Below are positions 1-57,726 of a stretch of 64,000 bases of DNA, one piece after another. The number at the start of each line of letters is the position of its first letter. Positions within the stretch are counted from its first letter, which is position 1. The translations under genes and the position numbers were made by a program. Origin of the DNA: Lachnospiraceae bacterium (GTDB lineage: Bacteria; Pseudomonadota; Alphaproteobacteria; RF32; CAG-239); the NCBI GenBank assembly GCA_963594125.1, contig CAVBCV010000001.1, positions 64,746 to 128,745 of the forward strand, given 5' to 3'. The notes under the pieces are model-generated. The model was given only the letters and a program-made list of their open reading frames with translations, ran no database searches and had not been told where the DNA came from.

Positions 1-44
1 TTGCCGAAAACGGTTGAAAGCGCATATATTGTTTTATTATCCAT
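1..44 (-). CDS. mnmE: Partial CDS at the window edge: N-terminus of tRNA modification GTPase MnmE/TrmE. The rest of the gene lies upstream of coordinate 1.
   Basis: Reverse complement of 1-44 reads ATG GAT AAT AAA ACA ATA TAT GCG CTT TCA ACC GTT TTC GGC AA = MDNKTIYALSTVFG. This matches the conserved MnmE N-terminus (xTIxAxxTxxG). The ORF runs off the window. Confidence 0.45.
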   Translation of the reverse strand, partial: MDNKTIYALSTVFG

Positions 45-216
45 TTTAACCTCGTTGTTATAATCAAAAAATACACCTGATATATTAAGATTTTATAAAA
101 TTTTGCGTTTAAGCGTCGTACAGCGCATTTTTATATTTTTTTAATAGTTATATTATAATGTTTGTTAAAAATCGTTCTGCGGGCTTTATACGAGCTCATC
201 AAAAAAGGATAAAAAA

Positions 217-885
217 ATGAAAAAACAGCTCATAATTTGGGATTTTGACGGGGTTATTGCCGATACGGAAAAACTTTGGCTTAAAAATCGGCAGCTTTTA
301 ATGAAAGAGGCTTTAGGTATTGATTGGGACTGGGATACTATTAATCATTATTTGCGCGGCACCGGAGATAAAACCAAACGAATTGTGCTTGATAATTTAG
401 GTATTAATACTGATGACGATTTTTGGGATAAAAGTATTGAGATGGATATTAACACCATGCACACTGAAGGCTTTGAGCTAACCGAAGGTATTGAAGATAT
501 TTTTAAGCTTCCGATTAAACAATGTATTGCAACCGGCGGCGTTCAAAATAAAACTATGGAAAAAATTCAAATTACTCATATAGAAAAATATTTTCCTAAA
601 GAAAAAGTTTTTACCATTGATATGGTTAAAAACGGTAAACCGGAGCCGGATTTGTTTTTACTCGCCGCTGAAAAAATGGGCGTAAAACCTGAAAATGCCG
701 TAGTTATTGAAGACTCAATCGCCGGATTGACCGGCGCTATAAAAGCAGGCTGTTTACCAATAGCATTTTTAGCTGGCGACCTTGAAAATGATAAACCCTA
801 TGCCGAAAAGGTAAAGAACATAGGCGTTAAATATATTTTTCATAATATGAAAGATGTAAAAAAGCTGATTAAAGAATTATTTTAG
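217..885 (+). CDS. HAD-superfamily hydrolase (phosphatase or beta-phosphoglucomutase-like).
   Basis: 222 aa. N-terminal motif I is IWDFDGVIADT (DxDGV). AGGA RBS upstream. Confidence 0.75.
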   Translation: MKKQLIIWDFDGVIADTEKLWLKNRQLLMKEALGIDWDWDTINHYLRGTGDKTKRIVLDNLGINTDDDFWDKSIEMDINTMHTEGFELTEGIEDIFKLPIKQCIATGGVQNKTMEKIQITHIEKYFPKEKVFTIDMVKNGKPEPDLFLLAAEKMGVKPENAVVIEDSIAGLTGAIKAGCLPIAFLAGDLENDKPYAEKVKNIGVKYIFHNMKDVKKLIKELF

Positions 886-1563
886 CCATAACGGATCAGT
901 AATATTGTTTTTCAAAAACTCTTCATGCTTTTGCAACTCTTCATCAGAAAGAGGAAAATTGCGCGGCTCATGATAAATACGCTCAGCATGCCCCTGCTCT
1001 GCTTTATGCTCTGAAACAGCCTCTGTTTCAAGTTTCATAGTTGGCTCAGCGCCTCCTAACAATTCCAAATAAACCTCTGAGAGCAACTCAGCGTCAAGCA
1101 AAGCGCCGTGCTTGGTACGGGCTGAGTTATCAATATTAAAGCGGCGGCACAAGGCGTCAAGGTTATTACGAGCTCCCGGGAATTTTCGGCGGGCAATCTC
1201 AAGCGTATCAATAACGCGGTCTTGCGGATAGGTCTGAAAACCTTTGTGCTTAAACTCATAATTAATAAAGTTAATATCAAATGAGGCGTTGTGAGCAACC
1301 AAAATACCGTCATCACCGACAAAATCTATAAAATCTTGGGCAATTTCAGCAACTTTAGGATAATTTTTCAAAAAATCATAGGTTAAGCCGTGAACTTTGA
1401 CAACTTCTTCCGGCACATCTCTTTCAGGGTTAATATACTGGTGATATGTACGACCGGTCGGAATGTGATTAATCAACTCAACCGCGCCGATTTCAACTAA
1501 TTTATCACCTTCTTGCGGGCTCAAACCGGTGGTTTCAGTATCAAAAACAATTTCTCTTAACAT
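877..1563 (-). CDS. dnaQ: DNA polymerase III epsilon subunit (3-prime to 5-prime proofreading exonuclease).
   Basis: 228 aa. Exo I motif IVFDTETTGL and a DnaQ-like DEDDh layout (HNASFD...). Adjacent to coaE, as in the conserved alphaproteobacterial coaE-dnaQ pair. Confidence 0.85.
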   Translation of the reverse strand: MLREIVFDTETTGLSPQEGDKLVEIGAVELINHIPTGRTYHQYINPERDVPEEVVKVHGLTYDFLKNYPKVAEIAQDFIDFVGDDGILVAHNASFDINFINYEFKHKGFQTYPQDRVIDTLEIARRKFPGARNNLDALCRRFNIDNSARTKHGALLDAELLSEVYLELLGGAEPTMKLETEAVSEHKAEQGHAERIYHEPRNFPLSDEELQKHEEFLKNNITDPLWLK

Positions 1564-2147
1564 TTTATTTCCATTTCATTAATTATCGCGGCAAGCTCGG
1601 CTTTTAATATATTGATTGGTCTGTCGGTATTAACGGCATAATCTGATAAAGCAATGCGCTCATCATTGCTCATTTGCACGGAGTTAATTTTATCAAAATC
1701 AGCGGCTGATATATTATCACGAATCATAACTCTTTGTTTTTGCACACTATATGGTACATCAGCTACAATAATTTTAGTACAATATTTTTCCCAGCCCATT
1801 TCAAATAATAAAGCAACATCAACAAATATAACCTCTTCACCACAGCGAGCGGCTTTATTAATAACCGATAAAAATTTTTGCTTCAAAAAAGGATGAGTTA
1901 ATTCTTCAAGTTTTTTAAGTTTATTTCTATCATCAAATACCATTGTGCGTAATTTGCGTTTATTGAAAACTCCGTTTTGCCAGGTTTCAGGATAATGTCT
2001 TTTGATAAGCTGTAAAAAATTGTCATCATAATAAAGTTGACGACACCATTTATCAACATCGTAAACAATATATCCTAATTTACGAATGATACCGGCGATA
2101 GTGGTTTTTCCGCACCCGATTGAACCTGTTATAGCAACTATTTGCAT
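1557..2147 (-). CDS. coaE: Dephospho-CoA kinase.
   Basis: P-loop IVAITGSIGCGKTT at the N-terminus. Start trimmed to the internal Met (MQIVAITG), which has an AAGG RBS. The ORF-track start at 2195 adds 16 residues with no RBS. Confidence 0.8.
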   Translation of the reverse strand: MQIVAITGSIGCGKTTIAGIIRKLGYIVYDVDKWCRQLYYDDNFLQLIKRHYPETWQNGVFNKRKLRTMVFDDRNKLKKLEELTHPFLKQKFLSVINKAARCGEEVIFVDVALLFEMGWEKYCTKIIVADVPYSVQKQRVMIRDNISAADFDKINSVQMSNDERIALSDYAVNTDRPINILKAELAAIINEMEIKC

Positions 2148-2429
2148 AAATTTAACCTTATTTGAATAAGTTATGACAGTTATACACAAAATCACAACTG
2201 ATTGTGCATAACTTTAGCTCTTAAACGAAAGTATATATTTTTATAAAGATAATTAAAAACATTTAACAACATTTATTAACATCTAAAATAAAATTAAACA
2301 CAGCTGTTCATTTTGTGTAAAACTCAATTTATTAACAACTTGTTAATTTTTACTAAGTGATTGAATCAAAAAATCATTAATAATTTATTAAGAAAGTTAT
2401 TAACAGATTGTTAAACTTTTGGATAGGTT

Positions 2430-2438
2430 TGTGGATAA
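2430..2438 (-). promoter_or_regulatory. Perfect consensus DnaA box (TTATCCACA on the minus strand).
   Basis: Exact 9-mer match. Confidence 0.6.
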
Positions 2439-2514
2439 AAAGTTATCCCCAATAATCGCAGGGATAAATAACAAATACTATAATTTTTAAAATTTTAAAT
2501 TGGGGCAAGGGGTT

Positions 2515-2523
2515 TGTGGATAA
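2515..2523 (-). promoter_or_regulatory. Perfect consensus DnaA box (TTATCCACA on the minus strand).
   Basis: Exact 9-mer match, 85 bp from the first box. Confidence 0.6.
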
Positions 2524-2625
2524 ATGCGGCTAAAAAGAAATTGACTTTTATAACCTTGTTTATTATATATATAAGCAGTTACGTTCGTAACTTCAAGGTT
2601 CTAATTTCAAACAAAAAAGGTTTAT

Positions 2626-3879
2626 ATGCATTTAAAGGAATTAAAAGATAAATCTCCGCAGGAGTTGCTTACATGGGCGGAAGATTTAGGAGTTGAAGAC
2701 GCATCTTCTATGCGTGTTCAAGATTTGGTTTTTGCCATTATGAAAAAAGTTGCTTCAGAAGACAATGTTATATATGGCGATGGTGTGATTGAGGTTTTGC
2801 AAGACGGATTTGGATTTTTACGCTCATCAAAATCTAACTATTTGGCAAGTCCTGATGATATTTATGTTTCACCGGCACAAGTTAAAAAATTTGGTTTAAG
2901 AACTGGCGATACAGTTGAAGGCGAAATCAGAGCGCCTAAAGATAACGAGCGTTATTTTGCGTTAACCAAAATTAATACTATTAACTATGAAGACCCTGAA
3001 AAATCAAAGTTAAGAGTTAATTTTGATAACTTAACTCCTTTATATCCGACTAAAAAACTTAATTTTGATATTATCTGCGGCGAAAAAGATTATACCACCC
3101 GCGTTATTGACTTAATTGCTCCGCAAGGTAAAGGGCAACGCGGACTTATTGTTGCTCCGCCGCGTACCGGTAAAACAGTTATGCTGCAAAATATTGCGCA
3201 CGCTATTGCCGTTAATCACCCGGAAGTTTATTTGATGGTGCTGTTGATTGACGAACGTCCGGAAGAGGTTACCGATATGACGCGTTCAGTTAAAGGCGAG
3301 GTTATTTCATCAACCTTTGACGAACCGGCAACGCGGCATGTTCAAGTAGCCGAGCTAGTTATTGAAAAGGCTAAGCGTTTGGTTGAAACTAAAAAAGATG
3401 TGGTGATTTTGCTTGACTCTATCACCCGTTTGGGACGCGCCTATAACGCGGTTGTTCCGTCATCGGGTAAAGTTTTAACCGGTGGTGTTGACGCTAATGC
3501 TTTACAACGTCCGAAACGCTTGCTTGGTGCCGCTCGTAATGTGGAAGAGGGCGGATCGCTTACGATTATCGCCACGGCGTTGATTGATACCGGCTCACGT
3601 ATGGACGAAGTTATTTTTGAAGAATTCAAAGGTACCGGTAACTCTGAGATTATTCTTGACCGCAAGCTTACCGATAAGCGCTTATTCCCGACTATTGATA
3701 TTACTCGTTCGGGAACGCGTAAAGAAGAGCTACTTGTTGATAAAACGACGCTTTCAAAAATGTGGGTTCTGCGCCGCGTGTTAATGCAAATGGGTATGAC
3801 CGACGGTATGGAATTTTTACTTGATAAGCTTAGAATGTCAAAAGATAATCAGGACTTCTTTAATAATATGAATAGTTAA
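2626..3879 (+). CDS. rho: Transcription termination factor Rho.
   Basis: 417 aa. N-terminal RNA-binding domain, Walker [13 protein letters not shown], and full-length collinearity with Rho. Confidence 0.95.
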
Positions 3880-6723: not shown

Positions 6724-9700
6724 ATGCAAAATCCTAAGTTTATACATCTGCGCGTACACACCGCGTATTCATTATCAGAAGGCGCTATTAAAATTGGCGA
6801 TCTTATCCATTATTTGCATCAAAAAAATATTCCGGCGATTGCAGTAACTGACAGCGGCAATATGTTTGGCGGCAAGGCTTTTTCAAAATATGCCTCGGAA
6901 GAAGGGGTTAAGCCGATTTTGGGTTGCACATTTTTTATGCGCAATCCTGACGCTGATGATTTGCTGCGCACCAAAGGCAAAGCGGTTGAACGTGATAAGC
7001 TGATTTTACTTGTGATGAACTCTACCGGCTATGAAAACATCATGAAGTTAATGAAGCTGTTTTATTTGGATAATACCGCGAACGGTGACGATCCGCAGCT
7101 TAAATATTCAGACTTGGAACAATATAACGAAGGGTTAATAGCTTTAACCGGCGGCGTTGATGGAGCAATCGGGCGCTTGTTGTTGGAAAACCGCGCGGAA
7201 GAAGCTGAACAAATGGTGCAAAAGCTACAAGGAATTTTCGGTGAGCGCTTGTATATGGAAATTTCGCGAATCGGCTTAGATACTGAACAAAAGACCGAAC
7301 AAAACTTTATTGATTTTGCCTATAAATATAATATTCCGCTGGTTGCCACTAATGAGGTTTTCTTTTTTGACCAGAGTATGTATGAGGCTCATGATGCCTT
7401 AATTTGTATTGCGGCTGGTGAGGTGTTGGCAAATGATAAGCGTAAACATTTTTCACCCAACAACCGGTTACGGTCTGAAGAAGAAATGGTGGAATTGTTT
7501 AAAGATTTACCGGAAGCGGTGGAAAATACGGTAAAAATTGCGCAGAAATGCAATTATCTTTCCACTAAAGTTAAGCCGTTGTTACCTATCTTTGAATGTC
7601 CGGATGGTAAAACTCAAGATGAATATATTACGGAAGAAGCTCATAAAGGCTTAGCCGAACGCATGAAAAAACATGTTTATTTTGAGGGGATGACCGATGA
7701 GCAGAAAGCCGAAATTGATAAGAAATATTATGACCGTTTGGAATATGAATTAAGCGTTATTAAACGCATGGGCTTTCCGGGCTATTTTTTAATCGTGTCG
7801 GATTTTATCAGGTGGTCAAAAACACACGGAGTTCCGGTTGGACCGGGGCGTGGTTCCGGCGCCGGTTCAATAGTGGCGTGGTCGCTTAAAATTACCGAAC
7901 TTGACCCGATAAAACTTGATTTGTTGTTTGAACGATTTTTAAATCCGGATCGTGTAAATATGCCGGATTTTGACGTTGACTTCTGTCAGGAAAACCGGTT
8001 TAAGACTATTGAATATGTGCAAAATAAATACGGGTTTGACCACGTGGCGCAAATTATTACTTATGGTAAATTGCAATCAAAGGCGGTTATCAGAGATGTG
8101 GCGCGCGTTTTGCAAATGCCTTATACGCAAGCGGATAAAATTTCAAAAATGATACCGAATCCGGTGCAAGGTAAAAACGTTTCGCTGCAGGAAGCGCTTG
8201 ATCAGGTGCCGGAACTGGAAGAAATGCGTCAGCATGATCCGCAAGTTAACAAGCTTTTTGATATTGCCATGAAGTTGGAAGGTTTGTACCGCCATTCCGG
8301 CGTGCATGCCGCCGGTGTGGTTATCGGCGACCGTCCGCTTGACCAACTTGTTCCGCTTTATAAAGATCCTAAGGCAGATATGCCGGTTACACAATATGAT
8401 ATGAAATACGTTGAAGAAACCGGTTTGATTAAATTTGACTTTTTGGGCTTAAAAACTTTAACCGTGATTAAAAAGGCGGTGGACTGGATTAAAAAGGTTA
8501 AAGGTATAGATTTAGATATGGATTCCATACCTTTGGATGATAAGCCGACTTATGAAATGATGCAACGCGGCGATACGGCGGCGGTGTTTCAATTTGAATC
8601 GGCGGGTATGAAAGACGTTCACAAGCAAATAAAACCTGACCGTTTTGAAGATTTAATCGCGATTGTGTCGCTTTATCGTCCGGGACCGATGGATAATATT
8701 CCGACTTATATTAAGCGTAAGCATGGTGAGGAAGAAATTACTTATTTGCACCCAAGCTTGGCGCCTATCTTAGATGAAACATATGGAATTATGGTTTATC
8801 AGGAGCAGGTTATGAATATTGCCCGCGCGCTTGGCGGATATACCATGGGCGAGGCGGATAAACTGCGTAAAGTTATGGGTAAAAAACAGCGCGAGGAAAT
8901 TCCGAAGCAACGTGAAAAATTTACAAAAGGCGCTATTGCGAACGGAATTAGCGAAGATGTTGCTAAAAGTATTTTTGATCAAATGGAAAAATTTGCCTCG
9001 TACGGCTTTAACAAGTCGCACGCGGCGGCATATTCGCTGATTTCATATCAGACGGCATATCTTAAAGCGCATTATCCGGTTGAATTTATGTGCGCGGTGA
9101 TGGATTTGGATATTATCAATACTGATAAATTGGCGTTTTTTGTGGCGGAGTGCCGCTCAACCGGTATGGAAATTTTAAAGCCGGATATTAATTTGTCAGG
9201 CGCCGATTTTAGGGTTGAAGATAATAAAATTCGTTATGCTTTGGGCGCAATTAAAGGGGTTGGCTCGTCATATATGCAGGGAATTGTGGCTGAGCGTGAA
9301 AAGAACGGACCATTTAAGAGTATATCTGATTTTTGCCATAGAGTTGATATTAAAAATGTTAACCGCAAACAAATGTATCAGTTGGTTAAGGCCGGCGCGT
9401 TTGATTGTTTGGAAAAAAACAGAGCCATGCTTTGTGAAAATGTTGATGTTATGGTCAGCAATATTTTTGCCTCGTCTGAAACTAAAAAAAGCGAGCAACA
9501 ATCTTTATTCGGCTCAGAAGAATTATGCAGTAAAATTAAGCTTAAAGAAATTCCTGATTGGCCGAATTTGGAAAAACTGCGTCATGAGGCGGAGGCTATC
9601 GGTTTTTATTTATCGGCTCACCCGCTTGATATTTATGCTGAAAGCGCTAAAAAGTTAGGCGTTAAAAGCTGTACCGATGTTATGCGTAATTTGAAAGCCG

Positions 9701-10197
9701 GCGATAGTATTAAAGCCAATATTGCAGTTTGTGTAGAAAGCTTCCGCAAGCGTATTGGAAAATCAGGCAAACCGTATGCTTTTGTTGGTTTTTCAGATGC
9801 TTCCGGCACCATAGAGGCGTTTTTATTTGCTGATGGTTTTGCAAAATATGAAAATATTTTGGCTTCAGATGATCCGGTTTTGGTTAAAATTACTATTGAT
9901 AAGCAAACAGAAGACATGGCGCCGCGGGTTATGATAAATTCAGTTAAAAAACTTGATGAAGCTATTACTGAACAAGCAAAAGGTTTGATTATTACCGTTA
10001 CTGATGTCAGCGCGGTCAGACAATTAAGAGAAATTTTGCAAAATGATAGAAAGGGAGCAAATAAAATATATATTATACCCGATATTCCTGATTGGGATTT
10101 AAGGTTTGAGCTTCCGGATGGTTATGCCTTTTATGATACGGCAATTATTACTAAAATCAGAAGTATTGCCGGTGTCAGCGATGTTAAGGAGATATAA
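6724..10197 (+). CDS. dnaE: DNA polymerase III alpha subunit.
   Basis: 1157 aa. PHP domain at the N-terminus (HLRVHTAYS), the polymerase core motif GPGRGSGAGS, and a C-terminal OB fold. Confidence 0.95.
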   Translation: MQNPKFIHLRVHTAYSLSEGAIKIGDLIHYLHQKNIPAIAVTDSGNMFGGKAFSKYASEEGVKPILGCTFFMRNPDADDLLRTKGKAVERDKLILLVMNSTGYENIMKLMKLFYLDNTANGDDPQLKYSDLEQYNEGLIALTGGVDGAIGRLLLENRAEEAEQMVQKLQGIFGERLYMEISRIGLDTEQKTEQNFIDFAYKYNIPLVATNEVFFFDQSMYEAHDALICIAAGEVLANDKRKHFSPNNRLRSEEEMVELFKDLPEAVENTVKIAQKCNYLSTKVKPLLPIFECPDGKTQDEYITEEAHKGLAERMKKHVYFEGMTDEQKAEIDKKYYDRLEYELSVIKRMGFPGYFLIVSDFIRWSKTHGVPVGPGRGSGAGSIVAWSLKITELDPIKLDLLFERFLNPDRVNMPDFDVDFCQENRFKTIEYVQNKYGFDHVAQIITYGKLQSKAVIRDVARVLQMPYTQADKISKMIPNPVQGKNVSLQEALDQVPELEEMRQHDPQVNKLFDIAMKLEGLYRHSGVHAAGVVIGDRPLDQLVPLYKDPKADMPVTQYDMKYVEETGLIKFDFLGLKTLTVIKKAVDWIKKVKGIDLDMDSIPLDDKPTYEMMQRGDTAAVFQFESAGMKDVHKQIKPDRFEDLIAIVSLYRPGPMDNIPTYIKRKHGEEEITYLHPSLAPILDETYGIMVYQEQVMNIARALGGYTMGEADKLRKVMGKKQREEIPKQREKFTKGAIANGISEDVAKSIFDQMEKFASYGFNKSHAAAYSLISYQTAYLKAHYPVEFMCAVMDLDIINTDKLAFFVAECRSTGMEILKPDINLSGADFRVEDNKIRYALGAIKGVGSSYMQGIVAEREKNGPFKSISDFCHRVDIKNVNRKQMYQLVKAGAFDCLEKNRAMLCENVDVMVSNIFASSETKKSEQQSLFGSEELCSKIKLKEIPDWPNLEKLRHEAEAIGFYLSAHPLDIYAESAKKLGVKSCTDVMRNLKAGDSIKANIAVCVESFRKRIGKSGKPYAFVGFSDASGTIEAFLFADGFAKYENILASDDPVLVKITIDKQTEDMAPRVMINSVKKLDEAITEQAKGLIITVTDVSAVRQLREILQNDRKGANKIYIIPDIPDWDLRFELPDGYAFYDTAIITKIRSIAGVSDVKEI

Positions 10198-17018: not shown

Positions 17019-17615
17019 TCAGGGTTGGCGCTCTATAAAGCGGCGCAATGTGCTGCGCTGAACGTCTAACCGGTTGGCAATTTCAGTTTTTGAGCAGCCT
17101 TTAGATAATAACTGCTGAATTTTACTCACGCTTTTGGAAAGCTTGAGCTTTTTTGATTCAGCAGAAAAAGGGCGTCCGAGCTTTTTGCCGGAAGCTTTTA
17201 GGTTGGCAAGCGATGATTTGGTGCGCTGTGAGATTAAATTACGCTCAATTTCAGCCGCTAAGCCGAAGGCAAAAGCCAAAACTTTAGACTGAATATCATT
17301 ACCTAAGCGATAATTTTCTTTTAAAGTCCAAACCTGACAATTTTTGCTTAAACATATTTCTAAGATGCGCATAACTTCAAGCAAAGAGCGCCCTAAACGC
17401 GATATTTCGCAGGCAATTAAAATATCGCCTTCTTGCAGAGAATCTAATAAACTTCCTAATTTACGGCTTTTAAGAGCTTTGCGTGATGAAATTTTTTCCT
17501 CAACCCATTGATTAATTTTTATGCGATTCTTTTTAACGAATTGTTCAATTTCATAGTGTTGGTGTTCAAGGGTTTGCTTTTGCGAGCTGACGCGAATATA
17601 GCCAATAACAGACAT
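17019..17615 (-). CDS. Serine recombinase (resolvase/invertase family). It is an orphan with no transposase nearby.
   Basis: 198 aa. N-terminal catalytic motif IGYIRVSSQKQTLEHQ with the Ser nucleophile, and a C-terminal HTH (CSKTEIANRLDVQRSTLRRF). Confidence 0.85.
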   Translation of the reverse strand: MSVIGYIRVSSQKQTLEHQHYEIEQFVKKNRIKINQWVEEKISSRKALKSRKLGSLLDSLQEGDILIACEISRLGRSLLEVMRILEICLSKNCQVWTLKENYRLGNDIQSKVLAFAFGLAAEIERNLISQRTKSSLANLKASGKKLGRPFSAESKKLKLSKSVSKIQQLLSKGCSKTEIANRLDVQRSTLRRFIERQP

Positions 17616-17727
17616 GCTTTTCTCCTGTTAGAATATTAAAAATAAAAGAATAGCTTTTTAAAGAATCTCTTGTAAATTTTAGATTTGGCTTTATTATAGA
17701 AGCAAATATTAATAAGGGAGATATAAA

Positions 17728-18033
17728 ATGACTGAAGATGCTGGTGATATTACCTATGATTTTGTGGTAAACGATGAAGATGAAGTTATGCTTTTGCTTT
17801 ATGCCGGTGAAACCGCTCCGGCGACTGAAACTCGTATAGTGCTAGACGCGGAAAATCATTCGGCAGAGCTGTTCCGTAATGACGATGAAAGCATTGTGCT
17901 TGAGGCTATTCCTGATGAAATTTTTGACAGCTTGATTGATGCCGACAAATTATTGGTTTGCGAGCTGAGCAATACTGAAAATGAAGATGACAGCCGCATT
18001 GTTTATGCTTATGAGGCTGATATAGAAGACTAA
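17728..18033 (+). CDS. Small, highly acidic protein of unknown function.
   Basis: 101 aa, very D/E-rich (for example NDEDEVMLLLYAGE and ENEDDSRIVYAYEADIED). Strong GGGAG RBS. Confidence 0.55.
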   Translation: MTEDAGDITYDFVVNDEDEVMLLLYAGETAPATETRIVLDAENHSAELFRNDDESIVLEAIPDEIFDSLIDADKLLVCELSNTENEDDSRIVYAYEADIED

Positions 18034-18037
18034 AACA

Positions 18038-18070
18038 AAACCGCCGGATTTGATTTACGGCGGTTTATAG
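18038..18070. terminator. Bidirectional terminator between the acidic-protein gene and the patatin gene.
   Basis: AAACCGCCG / CGGCGGTTT stem with a 12-nt loop and flanking A/T runs. Confidence 0.6.
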
Positions 18071-18919
18071 TTACTTTGCTAAAAACTTTTTAAGTGCTGC
18101 GAGTTGCTTTTTAGCGTCTTCACGTCCAAGGTTGTACATTTCCTTTATAATTTCAGGGTTAGTTTCGGCGTGTTTGATATTGATAAACCGGCTTGGTTTA
18201 ATAACAAATATTTTTCCTTGTTCAGACAGTTTTTGAATCTCATCAAGCTCTTGATTATACATTGCCGGACGATTGGCAAAAGCCTCAACAAATTTAGGAA
18301 ATTTGCGATAAACAAGTTTGGCAAGCCAAACAAATTTAGCGGCTTTTTTGCGGTATCCTTCCGGACGAGTTTGCACCACAATATTTTTTTCATAGCCTAA
18401 GTTAAAGGCGGCGTTTAGCGGAATGCTGTCAGCTATACCGCCATCAAGGTATAAATTGCCGTCAATTTCCACAATTTTAGAAAGAAACGGCATTGAGGCG
18501 GAAGCCCGCAAATAATCCATATATTTGCCGCTCATGTCAGGGCATAAAATATATTCAGCCTTGCCGGTTTTTAAGTTGGTGCAGGTTACATAAAACTTGG
18601 TTGCAGATTTTTTAAAGGTTTGGTTATCAAAAACATCAAGTTTTTCAGGAAGTTCATGATAAGCAAATTCAGTGTCAACCATATTGCCGGTTTTAAGCCA
18701 TGATTTAAAGCTCATAAAACGATAGTCGTCATTATATTTTAAGTTATAACGAATGCCGCGCCCGATTTGGCGGGAAATATAGCCGCAACCATGAATAGCA
18801 CCGGCGGAAACGCCGATTGCGCCGTCAGTAATAATGTTGTTTTCAAGCAATACATCAAGCACGCCAGCGGTATATATGCCTCGTTTGGCTCCGCCTTCAA
18901 GAACTAAACAACTTTTCAT
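18071..18919 (-). CDS. Patatin-like phospholipase.
   Basis: 282 aa. Oxyanion motif GGAKRG, GxSxG motif GVSAG, and catalytic DGG. The start codon abuts the stop of the upstream CDF gene (TAA-ATG), with GAGGA inside the CDF 3-prime end. Confidence 0.8.
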   Translation of the reverse strand: MKSCLVLEGGAKRGIYTAGVLDVLLENNIITDGAIGVSAGAIHGCGYISRQIGRGIRYNLKYNDDYRFMSFKSWLKTGNMVDTEFAYHELPEKLDVFDNQTFKKSATKFYVTCTNLKTGKAEYILCPDMSGKYMDYLRASASMPFLSKIVEIDGNLYLDGGIADSIPLNAAFNLGYEKNIVVQTRPEGYRKKAAKFVWLAKLVYRKFPKFVEAFANRPAMYNQELDEIQKLSEQGKIFVIKPSRFINIKHAETNPEIIKEMYNLGREDAKKQLAALKKFLAK

Positions 18920-19576
18920 TTATTTTTCCTCGCTGACAGTTTGCGGGTTACCGACCAAAATGTTAAATGACGATTTGATTAATCCGGCAGACCATTTTAA
19001 GATGATTAAACCTCCGATTAAGCCCATAAGCGGGTCAAAAAATACTAAGCCGAAATATTTGCCTAACAGCAGAGCTACAATAGCGGTTACAGAAGTTAAA
19101 GCATCGGCCAAAATATGCAGATATGCGGCCTTAAAGTTCAGGTTTTCTTTGTGGTGGTGATGTTCGCAAATTTCAGCCCCGTGGTGATGATGTTCCGACA
19201 TAATAAGGATGCAAACCATATTAACAAGCAAGCCGATTACAGTTACCAAAATAGCCTCGTTAAATGAAATTTTGGCAGGGTGGATAAAGCGATCAACCGA
19301 CTCATAAATAATACCGAATGAGGTTAACCCTAAAAATAAGGCGCTGGTGTAGCCGCCGAGAGCGTTTAACACATCTTCTTTGTTTTTGTAGCGATTGATT
19401 ACCGAGCACACCAAAAAGGTTATAAACAAGGCTAAGGCGTGGGTGCCCATGTGAAAACCATCAGCGGTTAAGGCCATTGATTTGGTTAAAATACCAAAAC
19501 TGATTTCCGCCGCCATGGTGATTAAGGTAACAATAATTACCAATAAGGTTTTGTTTTTTAATTTTTCATTATCCAT
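18920..19576 (-). CDS. Cation diffusion facilitator (CDF) divalent-metal efflux transporter with a His-rich loop, DmeF/CzcD-like.
   Basis: 218 aa and 6 TM segments. His-rich segment SEHHHHGAEICEHHHHKEN. Confidence 0.8.
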   Translation of the reverse strand: MDNEKLKNKTLLVIIVTLITMAAEISFGILTKSMALTADGFHMGTHALALFITFLVCSVINRYKNKEDVLNALGGYTSALFLGLTSFGIIYESVDRFIHPAKISFNEAILVTVIGLLVNMVCILIMSEHHHHGAEICEHHHHKENLNFKAAYLHILADALTSVTAIVALLLGKYFGLVFFDPLMGLIGGLIILKWSAGLIKSSFNILVGNPQTVSEEK

Positions 19577-19586
19577 TGTGTTCGTC

Positions 19587-19865
19587 CTATTTCATTTTGT
19601 TCAGGTGTTCAACCAGCTCATCAATCAAAGCTTGCGAATCCTTGTTATTTTTAAGCGCGTCTTTAATGCAGTTTTGCAAATGTCCGCGCACAACCTCTTT
19701 CCAAACGCCTTTTAAGGCTGATTGGGTAGAGGTGATTTGGTTTAAAATTTCCATACAGTCGCGATTTTCAGCAACCATTTTGTTAATGCCGCGAATCTGC
19801 CCTTCAATGCGGTTTAAGCGGGCAGTTAAGTGTTTTTTATCATCTTCAATGTAGCAAAAAGACAT
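19587..19865 (-). CDS. CsoR/RcnR/FrmR-family metal-sensing transcriptional repressor.
   Basis: 92 aa. Helical bundle with ligand residues C(37) in RDCMEIL and H/C in RGHLQNC (an x-C-H-C fingerprint). GAGGA RBS. Confidence 0.8.
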   Translation of the reverse strand: MSFCYIEDDKKHLTARLNRIEGQIRGINKMVAENRDCMEILNQITSTQSALKGVWKEVVRGHLQNCIKDALKNNKDSQALIDELVEHLNKMK

Positions 19866-19880
19866 ATTTAATCCTCAATA

Positions 19881-19910
19881 TAGTATATACCCCTATACCC
19901 TATCTATACG
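19881..19910. promoter_or_regulatory. Candidate operator for the CsoR/RcnR-family repressor: tandem TATA-C(3-4)-TATA repeats.
   Basis: TATACCCCTATA at 19886-19897 and TATACCCTATCTATA at 19894-19908, immediately upstream of the repressor RBS. This resembles RcnR/DmeR type-1 sites, which have AT-rich inverted flanks around a C/G tract. Confidence 0.4.
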
Positions 19911-19933
19911 ACTTATAAAGATGATTGTCAAGA

Positions 19934-21028
19934 TTAATTTTTATGTTTGAAAATGGTTTTTGCTAGTAAAACAGCGCAGACCCCGCTGATAACGCTAAGC
20001 AAAGCGCCCATTTTGGCGGCGTCTTGCAGGAAGTTGGCTGTATAGGCAATGTCGGCGATAAACAGCGATACGGTTAATCCGATACCGGCAGAAAGTCCGA
20101 TTAAGATAATATCATACGCATTAATACGTTTGTCAGGTTTTAAGCCGAAAAGCGCGCTGATTTTAATAAATAAACTAATGCCAAGCGGTTTGCCGATAAT
20201 TAAGGAGCTTAAAATTATAAAAGTTAAAACGGAAGCGTTGCCAAAGGTTACACCGGCGTTGGCAAGACCAAAAAAGAACAGCCCGAAAGTGACAACAGGT
20301 TTTAGGTGCTGTTCAAGTTTGTGAAGCGCTGTTTTAGGTATAAACGGCACAATCCAAACCATAGCTAAAGAAGCATGCAGGTTGGCAGAGTGCATACCGT
20401 ACCAGGAGATTAACGTTGGGAGCAGATATGTAAGGTACGATAGTTTTTTATTTTTGCGCAATAAGAAGCTTATCAGCATGGCGAGTATAATCAATAGCAA
20501 ATATTCAGGCTGAAACGGTTTTTCGGCATCAGGGTAAAAAACGGCGATAATACCAAGCCCGATAAAGTCATCAATAATTGCTAAAAACAGCAAAAAGGTT
20601 AAGGCGGGATGTTTTTTAGGGAAAATCAACTTGGCAAATAGCAATGCAACCGCAATATCGGTGGCGGTGCCGATAGCCCAACCGGCGGAATATTGAGGCT
20701 TGCCGAAAACAGTGTTCAGCACATAGAAAATAACTATCGGTATTAATACGCCGCCGCAAGCCGCCATAATATTTACAATGGCTTTTTTAAGCGGGAACAA
20801 AGCTCCGCCGGAAGAAAACTCATGTGTTATTTCAATGGCAACCGAGCCAAAAAACAGCACTAAAAAAATATCGTTTACTAAAAAATGAAAATTGGCGCCA
20901 ACAAAAAAATTATGATGAACAAAGGAATGATATAAATGATAGTCATAATTTGCCCACAACAAAGCAATGATAATTCCGCAGATAAGCGGAAGTGACCAGT
21001 CCTCGGCAATTTGTATAAACTTTTTCAT
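19934..21028 (-). CDS. nhaA: Na+/H+ antiporter NhaA.
   Basis: 364 aa and 11-12 TM segments. NhaA-type N-terminal region (ALLWANYDY ... NDIFLVLFFGSVAIEITHEF). Confidence 0.8.
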   Translation of the reverse strand: MKKFIQIAEDWSLPLICGIIIALLWANYDYHLYHSFVHHNFFVGANFHFLVNDIFLVLFFGSVAIEITHEFSSGGALFPLKKAIVNIMAACGGVLIPIVIFYVLNTVFGKPQYSAGWAIGTATDIAVALLFAKLIFPKKHPALTFLLFLAIIDDFIGLGIIAVFYPDAEKPFQPEYLLLIILAMLISFLLRKNKKLSYLTYLLPTLISWYGMHSANLHASLAMVWIVPFIPKTALHKLEQHLKPVVTFGLFFFGLANAGVTFGNASVLTFIILSSLIIGKPLGISLFIKISALFGLKPDKRINAYDIILIGLSAGIGLTVSLFIADIAYTANFLQDAAKMGALLSVISGVCAVLLAKTIFKHKN

Positions 21029-21118
21029 AATATCTCCGATAAATTTTATCAGATAATAATCAGTAAATTTAAGTTTACAAGTAAAACCCGATAAAAAACA
21101 AAAGAGCCGGGTCTGTTT

Positions 21119-21580
21119 TTAGTTTGTCAGTTGGCTTTTTAAGGCTTCAAGCTTTTCAATTTTAGCTTTGGTTTGAGTAACATAATTGTTGGTTCGGTTA
21201 AGCTGTTCAGTTGCTTCTTTGCAACCTTCAGAGCCATACGCGGTGAGTCCGCTTTCAGAACATTTTAAGTTTTTATCTTTGTTTAATTGTTTGAGGTTGT
21301 TTTTGTTTGATTGATAGTTGTTTTTGAGCGTGGGCAGTTCGGTTTTAATGTAATTTAACAAGTTGTCTTTGGCTTCTTGGCATTTTATGGTGCCGGTTTT
21401 AGCAATTTGCTCGGCAGAGCACGCTTCATCCATTTTTTTAGTTAATTCCACGTCTCTATCGTCAGCAAAACAAAAATAAGCGATTGCCAAAACAATAAGA
21501 ACAACAGTTAAGCATCCGTTGTTTTCTTGGGCGACTTCTGAAATTTTGCCGGTTGCGGTATCTATTTCAATTTTTGACAT
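21119..21580 (-). CDS. Hypothetical single-pass membrane protein with a coiled-coil, Cys-containing ectodomain.
   Basis: 153 aa. TM segment LTVVLIVLAIAYFCF. No recognisable family. Confidence 0.5.
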   Translation of the reverse strand: MSKIEIDTATGKISEVAQENNGCLTVVLIVLAIAYFCFADDRDVELTKKMDEACSAEQIAKTGTIKCQEAKDNLLNYIKTELPTLKNNYQSNKNNLKQLNKDKNLKCSESGLTAYGSEGCKEATEQLNRTNNYVTQTKAKIEKLEALKSQLTN

Positions 21581-34774: not shown

Positions 34775-34784
34775 TAAGGTTTGG

Positions 34785-34813
34785 AACCGGAGAATAAAAT
34801 CTCCGGTTTTTTT
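34785..34813 (+). terminator. Rho-independent terminator after the cupin gene.
   Basis: AACCGGAG-AATAAAAT-CTCCGGTT followed by a T7 run. Confidence 0.8.
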
Positions 34814-34912
34814 ATTGTGCATAAGTTTGTTAAAAATTCATTTCATGGTTGCGAATCTGCAAAAGTTAAATAATAGTTAATCTGAAAATTAACTTAATGT
34901 TAAGGATTTGAA

Positions 34913-56742: not shown

Positions 56743-57726
56743 ATGGCAAAATTTTTTCAGTTTCTGGGAAGTATCTTAGAGGGACTTCTGATGGTTGTAA
56801 TTTTTTACAATCCTGTATCTTTCGTGATTTGGAGTTTTGTCGCTCCGAGGAAAGCCGCCGCAATTATGGTCATCAAAGATGATGACTCAAAGTTTATGGA
56901 CTTTTTGAGCAATCTGCACAAGCCGCTCACTCATCTGTACCCGATGTGTATCAGAAAGCACTTCATGAAGGCTTTGGGGATGTTTAATTATTCCGCAAAG
57001 GCTCAGGTAAAAGCTTTCAGAGCCTTGAGCGAAACAGATTCGCCTGAAAAGGCAGTCAAAATCGTTAAGCAAATGAGTGACTTAGGAGCATCCAAACTTT
57101 GGGATGACAATATGGTCAGGAACCGGAGTTATAACCACATAATTACATATGCGGTAACTGAATCCGGAAAATCGTTGACAACTCGTCAGCTTAAAGACTT
57201 GTTCGCGAGGGAAGATTACGCCAATTTTGCTGTCTATGCCAAGAATCACACTCTGAGCAAAGCCGCTTTGGAATTGCTCATTGAGAGAATGAAGCAGAAG
57301 TCAGGAGACAAAGAGTCTTTTGATGAGTTGCAAGGCGTTCTTTTTAGTCAAATTGAAAAGAACGGTCTTCCGGCGAATCTGGTGGAAAAGGCAGTGGAGG
57401 CATGCGGTGAGAATCAGCTTGCTATCACAAAAGCTTTTGAAGTATTCCGCCAAAAGACGGTCGTGCTTTCAAGGCAAAAAGAGGCTTTTGTTCCACTTAT
57501 TAAGTATGAAAAGCTTTATCCTTCGGTGGAGGCGATGCTTAGTGAGGAGCAATACAAGCTCTATTTAGAAACGGGTAGGCGCTTGAGCGATGAGGCTATT
57601 CGTGAGTTTATCGCTCGCGAGAACATTGGCATGTGCAAGCTTATCTTTAAAAATGAAAAGCTTTCACCAATAGCGTTGTTGATGGCCAAGGCGAATCCTA
57701 AATTCGCCGTGATGATGTACGTCTAA
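56743..57726 (+). CDS. Hypothetical protein with an N-terminal hydrophobic segment. First gene of a compositionally atypical cluster.
   Basis: 327 aa with no recognisable motif. Codon usage (AAG, CTG, AGG/AGA, GAG frequent) differs visibly from flanking housekeeping genes, which favour AAA, TTA/TTG, CGC/CGT and GAA. Confidence 0.5.
   Translation: MAKFFQFLGSILEGLLMVVIFYNPVSFVIWSFVAPRKAAAIMVIKDDDSKFMDFLSNLHKPLTHLYPMCIRKHFMKALGMFNYSAKAQVKAFRALSETDSPEKAVKIVKQMSDLGASKLWDDNMVRNRSYNHIITYAVTESGKSLTTRQLKDLFAREDYANFAVYAKNHTLSKAALELLIERMKQKSGDKESFDELQGVLFSQIEKNGLPANLVEKAVEACGENQLAITKAFEVFRQKTVVLSRQKEAFVPLIKYEKLYPSVEAMLSEEQYKLYLETGRRLSDEAIREFIARENIGMCKLIFKNEKLSPIALLMAKANPKFAVMMYV

Follow-up and report, generated by a model that had tools for sequence, protein, structure and literature searches.

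The chromosomal replication origin mapped in Caulobacter is the spacer between hemE and the gene of the COG1806/DUF299 kinase-pyrophosphorylase, and the same spacer is predicted as the origin in Rickettsia and underlies origin calls in sphingomonads (PMC1914354, PMC6393856, PMC4741004). Origins predicted for Rickettsia, Wolbachia, Ehrlichia and Anaplasma are A+T-rich spacers of 380-620 bp with 3-5 sites per kind, their boundary genes shift by rearrangement, and boundary genes are already known to differ between lineages (PMC1914354). For the G2 box of the Caulobacter crescentus origin (Cori), competition between DnaA and CtrA has been proposed (PMC6393856). Here we analysed a stretch of 64,000 nucleotides (the window; contig CAVBCV010000001.1, positions 64,746 to 128,745) from a low-GC uncultured alphaproteobacterium, and within it the intergenic spacer between coaE and rho (2148-2625, 478 bp, 23.6% GC). 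Judged from sequence, this spacer is probably the chromosomal origin (oriC) of the organism, built like Cori and the origins of Rickettsiales. The predicted oriC spans approximately 2148-2540, with the remaining 85 bp (2541-2625) taken up by the rho promoter and leader. It is very probably an origin of the ordinary type, combining DnaA boxes with CtrA-type sites, that lost its usual neighbour genes.

The spacer contains four consensus TTATNCACA DnaA boxes (starting at 2180, 2203, 2430 and 2515), one TTTTACACA and weaker boxes. Two perfect boxes TTATCCACA, read TGTGGATAA on the plus strand, lie on the minus strand at 2430-2438 and 2515-2523, exactly where an initial annotation of the window had placed them, and of the three copies of TGTGGATAA in the 64 kb (0.48 expected over this length) two sit in the spacer. 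These two lie on one strand at a distance of 85 bp, each within a copy of the perfect 14-nt direct repeat GGTTTGTGGATAAA (2426-2439 and 2511-2524), the first of which is adjoined by an invariant GGATA (2421-2425). That annotation had overlooked the box TTATACACA on the plus strand (2180-2188), which fits TTATNCACA, the box TTATGCACA on the minus strand (2203-2211), which forms an inverted pair with it, and the looser TTTTACACA on the minus strand (2314-2322), which fits TTWTNCACA and is poorly conserved. The one-mismatch box TTATCCCCA was present as described, at 2443-2451 rather than 2444-2452, and faces GGGATAA at 2461-2467. The hairpin potential of this inverted pair, which could suggest a terminator-like repeat (2443-2467), is not conserved in relatives, and the pair is better read as two weak half-boxes facing each other.

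Three perfect TTAA-N7-TTAA motifs, the form of CtrA sites, had been noted before and were all recovered on the plus strand: TTAACAACTTGTTAA at 2332-2346, TTAATAATTTATTAA at 2377-2391 and TTAACAGATTGTTAA at 2400-2414. A 9-mer that had escaped notice, TTATTAACA, occurs in three copies on one strand (2273-2281, 2329-2337 and 2397-2405), the second and third of which overlap CtrA-type sites 1 and 3, respectively. Between the left box pair and these sites lies an A+T-rich tract (2213-2300, 88-90% A+T) with 10-bp-period AACATTTA repeats, which holds the first TTATTAACA copy and is the candidate unwinding element. In the stability profile the least stable DNA was found at 2220-2299, adjoining the left box pair, with further A+T troughs at 2460-2500 and 2530-2570 as possible alternatives. 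A single GANTC site of the CcrM methylation type (GAATC, 2363-2367) is kept in five of seven aligned spacers, one copy being no more than expected by chance. No GATC was found in the spacer, which likewise gave no match in an Rfam scan and held no credible small open reading frame, those present being short and of low complexity.

To judge these counts we generated 5000 randomized versions of this spacer with its dinucleotides preserved. The spacer has three TTAA-N7-TTAA motifs where 0.34 are expected (P=0.005) and five TTWTNCACA boxes where 0.13 are expected (P<2e-4, as none of the 5000 shuffles reached five). Both motif types likewise exceeded their own dinucleotide expectation in the spacers of two related contigs, L002 and L082. 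Among the 28 intergenic regions of at least 60 bp in the window (5.4 kb in total, most of 21-34% GC), the spacer holds three of the five CtrA-type motifs and five of the six DnaA boxes, and in the 21 kb of L002 the 475-bp spacer holds five of six boxes and four of six CtrA-type motifs. No other comparable cluster was found in the 28 intergenic regions of the window or in 15-21 kb of five related contigs. Hence chance matching has next to no probability as the source of the motifs: TTAA-rich motifs do arise more easily in DNA of 76% A+T, and over the whole 64 kb TTAA-N7-TTAA is not above expectation (10 against 7.9, three of the ten in the spacer), yet chance is rejected by shuffles of the spacer itself, by the near absence of such motifs from the other 27 intergenic regions of similar A+T content and by their selective conservation across species. 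The refuting condition named by the initial annotation, that the motifs be no denser here than in other A+T-rich spacers, did not hold within the 64 kb.

One further intergenic region of the 28 combines both motif types. This region of 138 bp (34775-34912), upstream of apaG and beside the hdaA and cckA-like genes, carries two adjacent TTAA-N7-TTAA motifs (34866 and 34889) and a TGTGCATAA box at 34816, and it may be a cell-cycle-regulated promoter.

Subsequently, we compared the spacer with those of relatives. Scans with Rho over genomes and metagenomes returned two close relatives only, L002 (a metagenome-assembled genome, 97% identity) and L082 (a metagenome contig, 91%), and any cultured relative found reached at most 78%. 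A search with the ParA of L002 opened up the clade, with relatives of 74-100% identity in many metagenome assemblies. ParA identity to L002 was 100% in L164 and L165, which belong to the same species as L002, 89% in L166, 88% in L167, 87% in L168 and 81% in L169. In every one of the loci L164-L169, coaE adjoins a spacer of 473-522 bp. The spacer of L167 is 99% identical to that of the window, and L169 has an additional gene between rho and the spacer. Two more distant loci, L170 and L171 (ParA 76-78%), have a different context without the motif cluster and are uninformative on the spacer.

Seven spacers from at least five species, overall 52-99% identical to the window, were aligned; the identity was 63-67% in L002, L166 and L169 and 52% in L082. 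Invariance was counted over five species, with L082 excluded, for the four TTATNCACA boxes and the three TTAA-N7-TTAA motifs. Of the specified motif positions 54/56 were invariant, in comparison to 10/25 of the N positions (Fisher test, p=4e-8) and 111/312 of the remaining spacer (p=3e-19). Species differ in whether a box is TTATCCACA, TTATGCACA or TTATACACA, and these differences are confined to the degenerate fifth base. At the level of single sites, the boxes at 2180 and 2515 are kept in six of the seven spacers with only N varying, and TGTGNATAA of the 2203 box is invariant in all seven. CtrA-type site 1 is perfect in six of seven, and at sites 2 and 3 every one of the seven spacers retains the TTAA halves, with the N7 between them free to vary. 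The variation of the boxes thus falls exactly where DnaA tolerates it, the footprint that would be expected of protein-binding sites. A regulator binding palindromes was considered and rejected, as the extended TTAACAA-N-TTGTTAA palindromes of the window are not kept in relatives and only their TTAA halves are.

The TTATTAACA copies are spaced by 56 bp and 68 bp, identically in all six close contigs, and in L082 all four copies within its 8.5 kb lie in the spacer (0.06 expected). The 9-mer is one base off TTATNCACA, and it or a close variant stands in for the perfect 2430 box in L082 and L169. It might be a lineage-specific composite of a DnaA box and a CtrA half-site, with competition at three phased positions, or else the site of a third origin-binding protein, a proposal that we regard as rather doubtful. 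If true, either reading would mean a distinct regulatory design of an alphaproteobacterial origin, beyond a relocated Cori.

The relatives also differ in gene arrangement. With respect to the spacer, the mnmE-mnmG-rsmG-parAB cluster occupies the left side in the window, in L002 and in L165-L169 and the right side in L082 (window 1-2147 versus L082 5540-7723). Inversions around an origin tend to move gene clusters between the arms and to keep their orientation relative to the origin. A single inversion across the spacer accounts for the difference between L082 and the window or L002, as the mnmE cluster swaps the arm and keeps its orientation relative to the spacer. Within parB of this cluster, a TTAA-N7-TTAA (TTAA..T.TTGTTAA) occurs at the same place in four contigs (L165 11296; L166, L167 and L168 11306), which could reflect coding constraint or an internal regulatory site.

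GC skew was examined on local sequence, with up to 62 kb covered on one arm and up to 19 kb on the opposite one. Exact look-ups of Rho, DnaQ and the HAD protein yielded only short Logan contigs of the organism of the window. The left arm within the window measures 2.1 kb and was extended by 2.6 kb with L163, a Logan contig of the same organism (identical over 1854 bp), and contigs of relatives supplied 10-19 kb of this arm. The minimum of the cumulative skew, the place of which on the whole replicon the initial annotation had proposed as a check, fell at 2339 in the window joined to L163, inside the spacer. It also fell inside the spacer in L002 (9857), L165 (1391, same species as L002), L166 (2609), L167 (2874), L168 (2865) and L169 (2989), that is, in six separate sequences, the window and five contigs, one per further species or strain. 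Since divergent transcription alone could yield such a minimum, we measured skew at third codon positions. Along the 61-kb right arm of the window it was +0.18 in plus-strand and +0.31 in minus-strand genes. On the opposite arm of L165, read along the presumptive leading strand, it was +0.10 (p=3e-4) and +0.14 (p=4e-5), respectively, and the left arm of L002 in window orientation gave -0.12 and -0.14. Third-position skew has the leading-strand sign for both gene orientations, which argues that the asymmetry is linked to replication with the polarity of an origin and is not a coding-strand effect. Gene-strand bias, also proposed as a check, was uninformative (25.7 kb of coding sequence on the plus strand and 30.6 kb on the minus strand of the right arm), and the flip in gene orientation that had been noted at the spacer holds locally but not beyond, where a plus-strand HAD gene lies to the left and two minus-strand genes follow rho. 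In the right arm the skew falls to approximately 0 at 17019-21580, where a serine-recombinase (resolvase) gene (17019-17615, minus strand) precedes patatin-like, cation-efflux and Na+/H+ antiporter genes, all on the minus strand; this segment may be a small acquired island.

The flanking proteins were compared by tblastn with 160 loci of other Alphaproteobacteria, and the content of the gap between coaE and rho was determined by Pfam annotation. The frame is nearly universal, with dnaQ-coaE on one strand, a gap of 2-6 kb and rho-mnmE-mnmG-rsmG-parA on the other strand. Elsewhere the gap contains aroE, maf, the COG1806 gene, a spacer, hemE and hemH, and 71 loci have COG1806 and hemE side by side in divergent orientation, with a spacer of 246-554 bp between them. 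The local skew minimum falls in the coaE-rho gap in 28 of 58 loci of 21 kb, the gap making up about one fifth of each locus. In the clade of the window the whole gap content is gone, which leaves coaE, 478 bp and rho. By its place in this frame, the coaE-rho spacer is homologous in position to the hemE-COG1806 origin of Caulobacter and Rickettsia. The canonical spacers of other Alphaproteobacteria contain on average 0.45 stringent boxes and 0.24 perfect CtrA motifs, and thus the predicted origin of this clade is unusually close to consensus.

We compared the spacer with published in silico criteria for origins (Brassinga 2001; Ioannidis 2007; PMC1914354). Agreement was found for the boxes (an intergenic region above 300 bp with several TTATNCACA boxes, where 0.04-0.13 are expected in 478 bp), for several CtrA sites (three perfect motifs, predicted from sequence), for A+T richness (76.4% versus 52-66% in 2-kb windows over the 64 kb), for local uniqueness of the cluster within the window and the related contigs and for a switch of GC skew from minus to plus, resolved to about ±5 kb. 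In contrast, the spacer does not have a hemE or COG1806 boundary gene, both absent from the window and the clade loci, and it does not have an IHF site.

Several observations weigh against an origin at this place. The IHF consensus WATCAANNNNTTR was not found in the spacer of the window, and the spacers of L002 and L082 have one match each at positions that are not homologous. L082, the sixth relative species, retains one consensus DnaA box only. The conservation statistics lack full independence, as the five to seven spacers come from relatives and the motif blocks themselves anchored the alignment. Neither ctrA nor dnaA was located in the clade, the search for ctrA, by tblastn with a Caulobacter CtrA query over about 0.2 Mb of clade sequence, being uninformative. 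Third-position skew is near zero in rho, dnaE and some far-left genes, amounts to approximately 0 in the 4.7-kb left flank of the organism itself and is not significant in the plus-strand genes of the far arm of L166 and L167. Because skew is noisy gene by gene, it places the switch by itself within about 5 kb, and there the motif cluster singles out the spacer. Finally, our survey covered the window and the clade contigs, and a second or better DnaA-box cluster may lie elsewhere, for example by a relocated hemE or dnaA.

The best surviving alternative, though an improbable one, is that the spacer is a divergent promoter region only, in which DnaA and CtrA regulate rho and/or coaE-dnaQ, with the origin elsewhere. 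DnaA and CtrA are both known as transcription factors in Caulobacter (PMC3193534, PMC6393856), and the intergenic region at 34775-34912 likewise combines both motif types, an indication that promoters of this kind occur here. The coaE gene has the 2180 and 2203 boxes 33-64 bp upstream of its start, and a candidate sigma-70 promoter of rho (TTGACT-17 nt-TATATA, 2541-2569, plus strand) sits 18 bp downstream of the 2515 box. The consensus promoter scan missed this promoter, the -10 hexamer of which ends in A, and the call rests on its conservation wherever rho abuts the spacer. Downstream, the predicted leader of rho carries at its extreme 5' end a hairpin (AGTTAC-GTTC-GTAACT, 2577-2592, plus strand) with a 6-bp stem, a G(T/G)TC tetraloop and compensatory changes, the stem reading AGTTGC/GCAACT in L002 (approximately 9954-9969) and AATCAC/GTGATT in L169 (approximately 1474-1489, minus strand). 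The hairpin has no Rfam match and may be an mRNA-stabilising or autoregulatory element. Between the 2515 box and the rho -35 hexamer we also noticed a G+C cluster, ATGCGGCTAAA (2524-2535), kept in five of seven spacers.

The arrangement in L169 separates these elements. There, a gene of 319 aa and an intrinsic terminator lie between the motif cluster and rho, and the rho promoter (TTGACA-17-TATATA) and the hairpin moved along with rho into a 226-bp region of their own. All boxes, CtrA-type sites and TTATTAACA copies as well as the skew minimum remain in the coaE-side spacer. Sites that regulate a promoter should travel with it, and for rho they did not, so the motif cluster is no mere accessory of the rho promoter. 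Moreover, at least seven sites over about 390 bp with strictly kept spacing exceed the needs of a promoter, six separate sequences have their skew minimum in the spacer and the interval is the ancestral position of the origin. As coaE adjoins the cluster in every case, a role in coaE-dnaQ expression and origin function are inseparable. The initial annotation had offered two readings, oriC or a rho promoter controlled by DnaA and CtrA, and skew, footprint, position and the decoupling in L169 favour oriC. As to the inserted gene, open reading frames of about 320 aa without Pfam or NCBIfam match recur near origin-proximal genes (beside der or mnmE, or in the interval from rho to the spacer), namely at L169 1666-2625 (minus strand), window 56743-57726 (plus strand), L170 684-1661 and L171 2289-3260.

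Slightly less probable again is that the spacer is a relic or a secondary cluster of DnaA boxes, similar to datA or DARS or a decayed origin, and that the active origin moved with hemE and COG1806. These usual boundary genes are indeed missing from the interval, local rearrangement is frequent (the inversion between L082 and the window, the different context in L170 and L171), and the evidence covers local contigs rather than a whole genome. A relic should decay, yet the motif positions are nearly invariant in five species next to flanks invariant at about 35%; the switch in local skew polarity persists here on both arms, and the spacer has no IHF site of the datA/DARS kind. An active oriC thus remains the reading that we prefer.

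The sequence data show the motifs with their enrichment and selective conservation, the skew switch and the homology of position, and from these we infer the binding proteins, the site of melting and the start of replication at the spacer. DnaA-ATP would fill the TTATNCACA boxes at 2180, 2203, 2430 and 2515 and the weaker boxes at 2314, 2443 and 2461, and would melt the adjoining A+T-rich tract, the best candidate being 2213-2300. A CtrA-type response regulator under a CckA phosphorelay would bind the sites at 2332, 2377 and 2400 and block initiation during part of the cell cycle. As two of the CtrA-type sites start inside TTATTAACA, which can itself be read as a DnaA box with one mismatch, initiator and repressor may be in competition for shared DNA.

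The genes around the spacer are consistent with the conserved frame. On the left, coaE (dephospho-CoA kinase, 1557-2147, minus strand, TIGR00152 match) forms the boundary and is followed by dnaQ (877-1563, minus strand), and rho (2626-3879, plus strand, TIGR00767, 686 bits) forms the right boundary. The coaE start at ATG 2147 gives 196 aa, in agreement with the 194-196 aa of CoaE in relatives; the frame could be extended to GTG 2195, a start that this length speaks against. Hence the A+T-rich spacer of 478 bp in the initial annotation is correct in length and composition, and its start is 2148 instead of 2196. Similarly, mnmE was correctly placed at the left, although just about 14 codons of it lie inside the window and its presence was confirmed on the overlapping contig L163. 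HdaA, a CckA-like hybrid kinase and a MipZ-like ATPase, all named before, were found encoded at 35-41 kb; the kinase (861 aa) has CckA as its best NCBIfam match over the full length with 529 bits, below the curated cut-off of 1000. None of dnaA, hemE, COG1806 and ctrA is among the genes annotated in the window.

Our data provide a well-supported origin call for an uncultured and apparently widespread alphaproteobacterial clade, which serves the orientation of draft genomes, growth-rate estimates from peak-to-trough coverage and comparative anchoring. The rule to look next to hemE fails once the heme genes are lost, and the frame dnaQ-coaE ... rho-mnmE still locates the origin. The clean footprint, with boxes varying at the degenerate base and CtrA halves fixed around free spacers, is a convenient natural example of DnaA/CtrA origin design; the understanding of how such origins work is unchanged.

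Among described systems the predicted origin most resembles Cori, the hemE-CCNA_00001 (COG1806) spacer of C. crescentus. As in Cori, divergently transcribed genes flank a spacer of about 400-500 bp that combines several DnaA boxes, several TTAA-N7-TTAA CtrA sites, an A+T-rich tract, an edge promoter and a GANTC site, at least one CtrA site overlaps a DnaA-type box (PMC6393856), and the neighbourhood is the same conserved dnaQ-coaE ... rho-mnmE-mnmG-rsmG-parAB. In contrast to Cori, hemE, COG1806, aroE, maf and hemH are absent and coaE and rho border the predicted origin directly, the boxes are of the E. coli-type consensus TTATNCACA instead of the weak G and W boxes, there are three CtrA-type sites, known here from sequence alone, instead of five, and no IHF consensus site was found in the spacer. 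The same consensus set of TTATNCACA and TTAA-N7-TTAA characterizes the in silico origins of Rickettsia, Wolbachia, Ehrlichia and Anaplasma (PMC1914354). Nevertheless, those keep the hemE boundary and the IHF consensus, neither of which the spacer has, and the host belongs to a separate uncultured clade, distant in Rho from any cultured relative found. A half-way case is a Bartonella locus (L041), in which hemE is also missing from the interval and rho borders a large spacer (COG1806, 573 bp, rho). The local skew switch there is strong (-0.095/+0.118), with the minimum at 8790, within about 640 bp of the spacer. Unlike the window, this locus retains COG1806, maf and aroE, and its spacer has one consensus box and one TTAA-N7-TTAA. 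With E. coli oriC the predicted origin shares consensus 9-mer boxes (TTATCCACA, TTATACACA) that flank an A+T-rich element; it differs in having no GATC/SeqA system, in its CtrA-type sites, which are specific to Alphaproteobacteria, and in its gene context.

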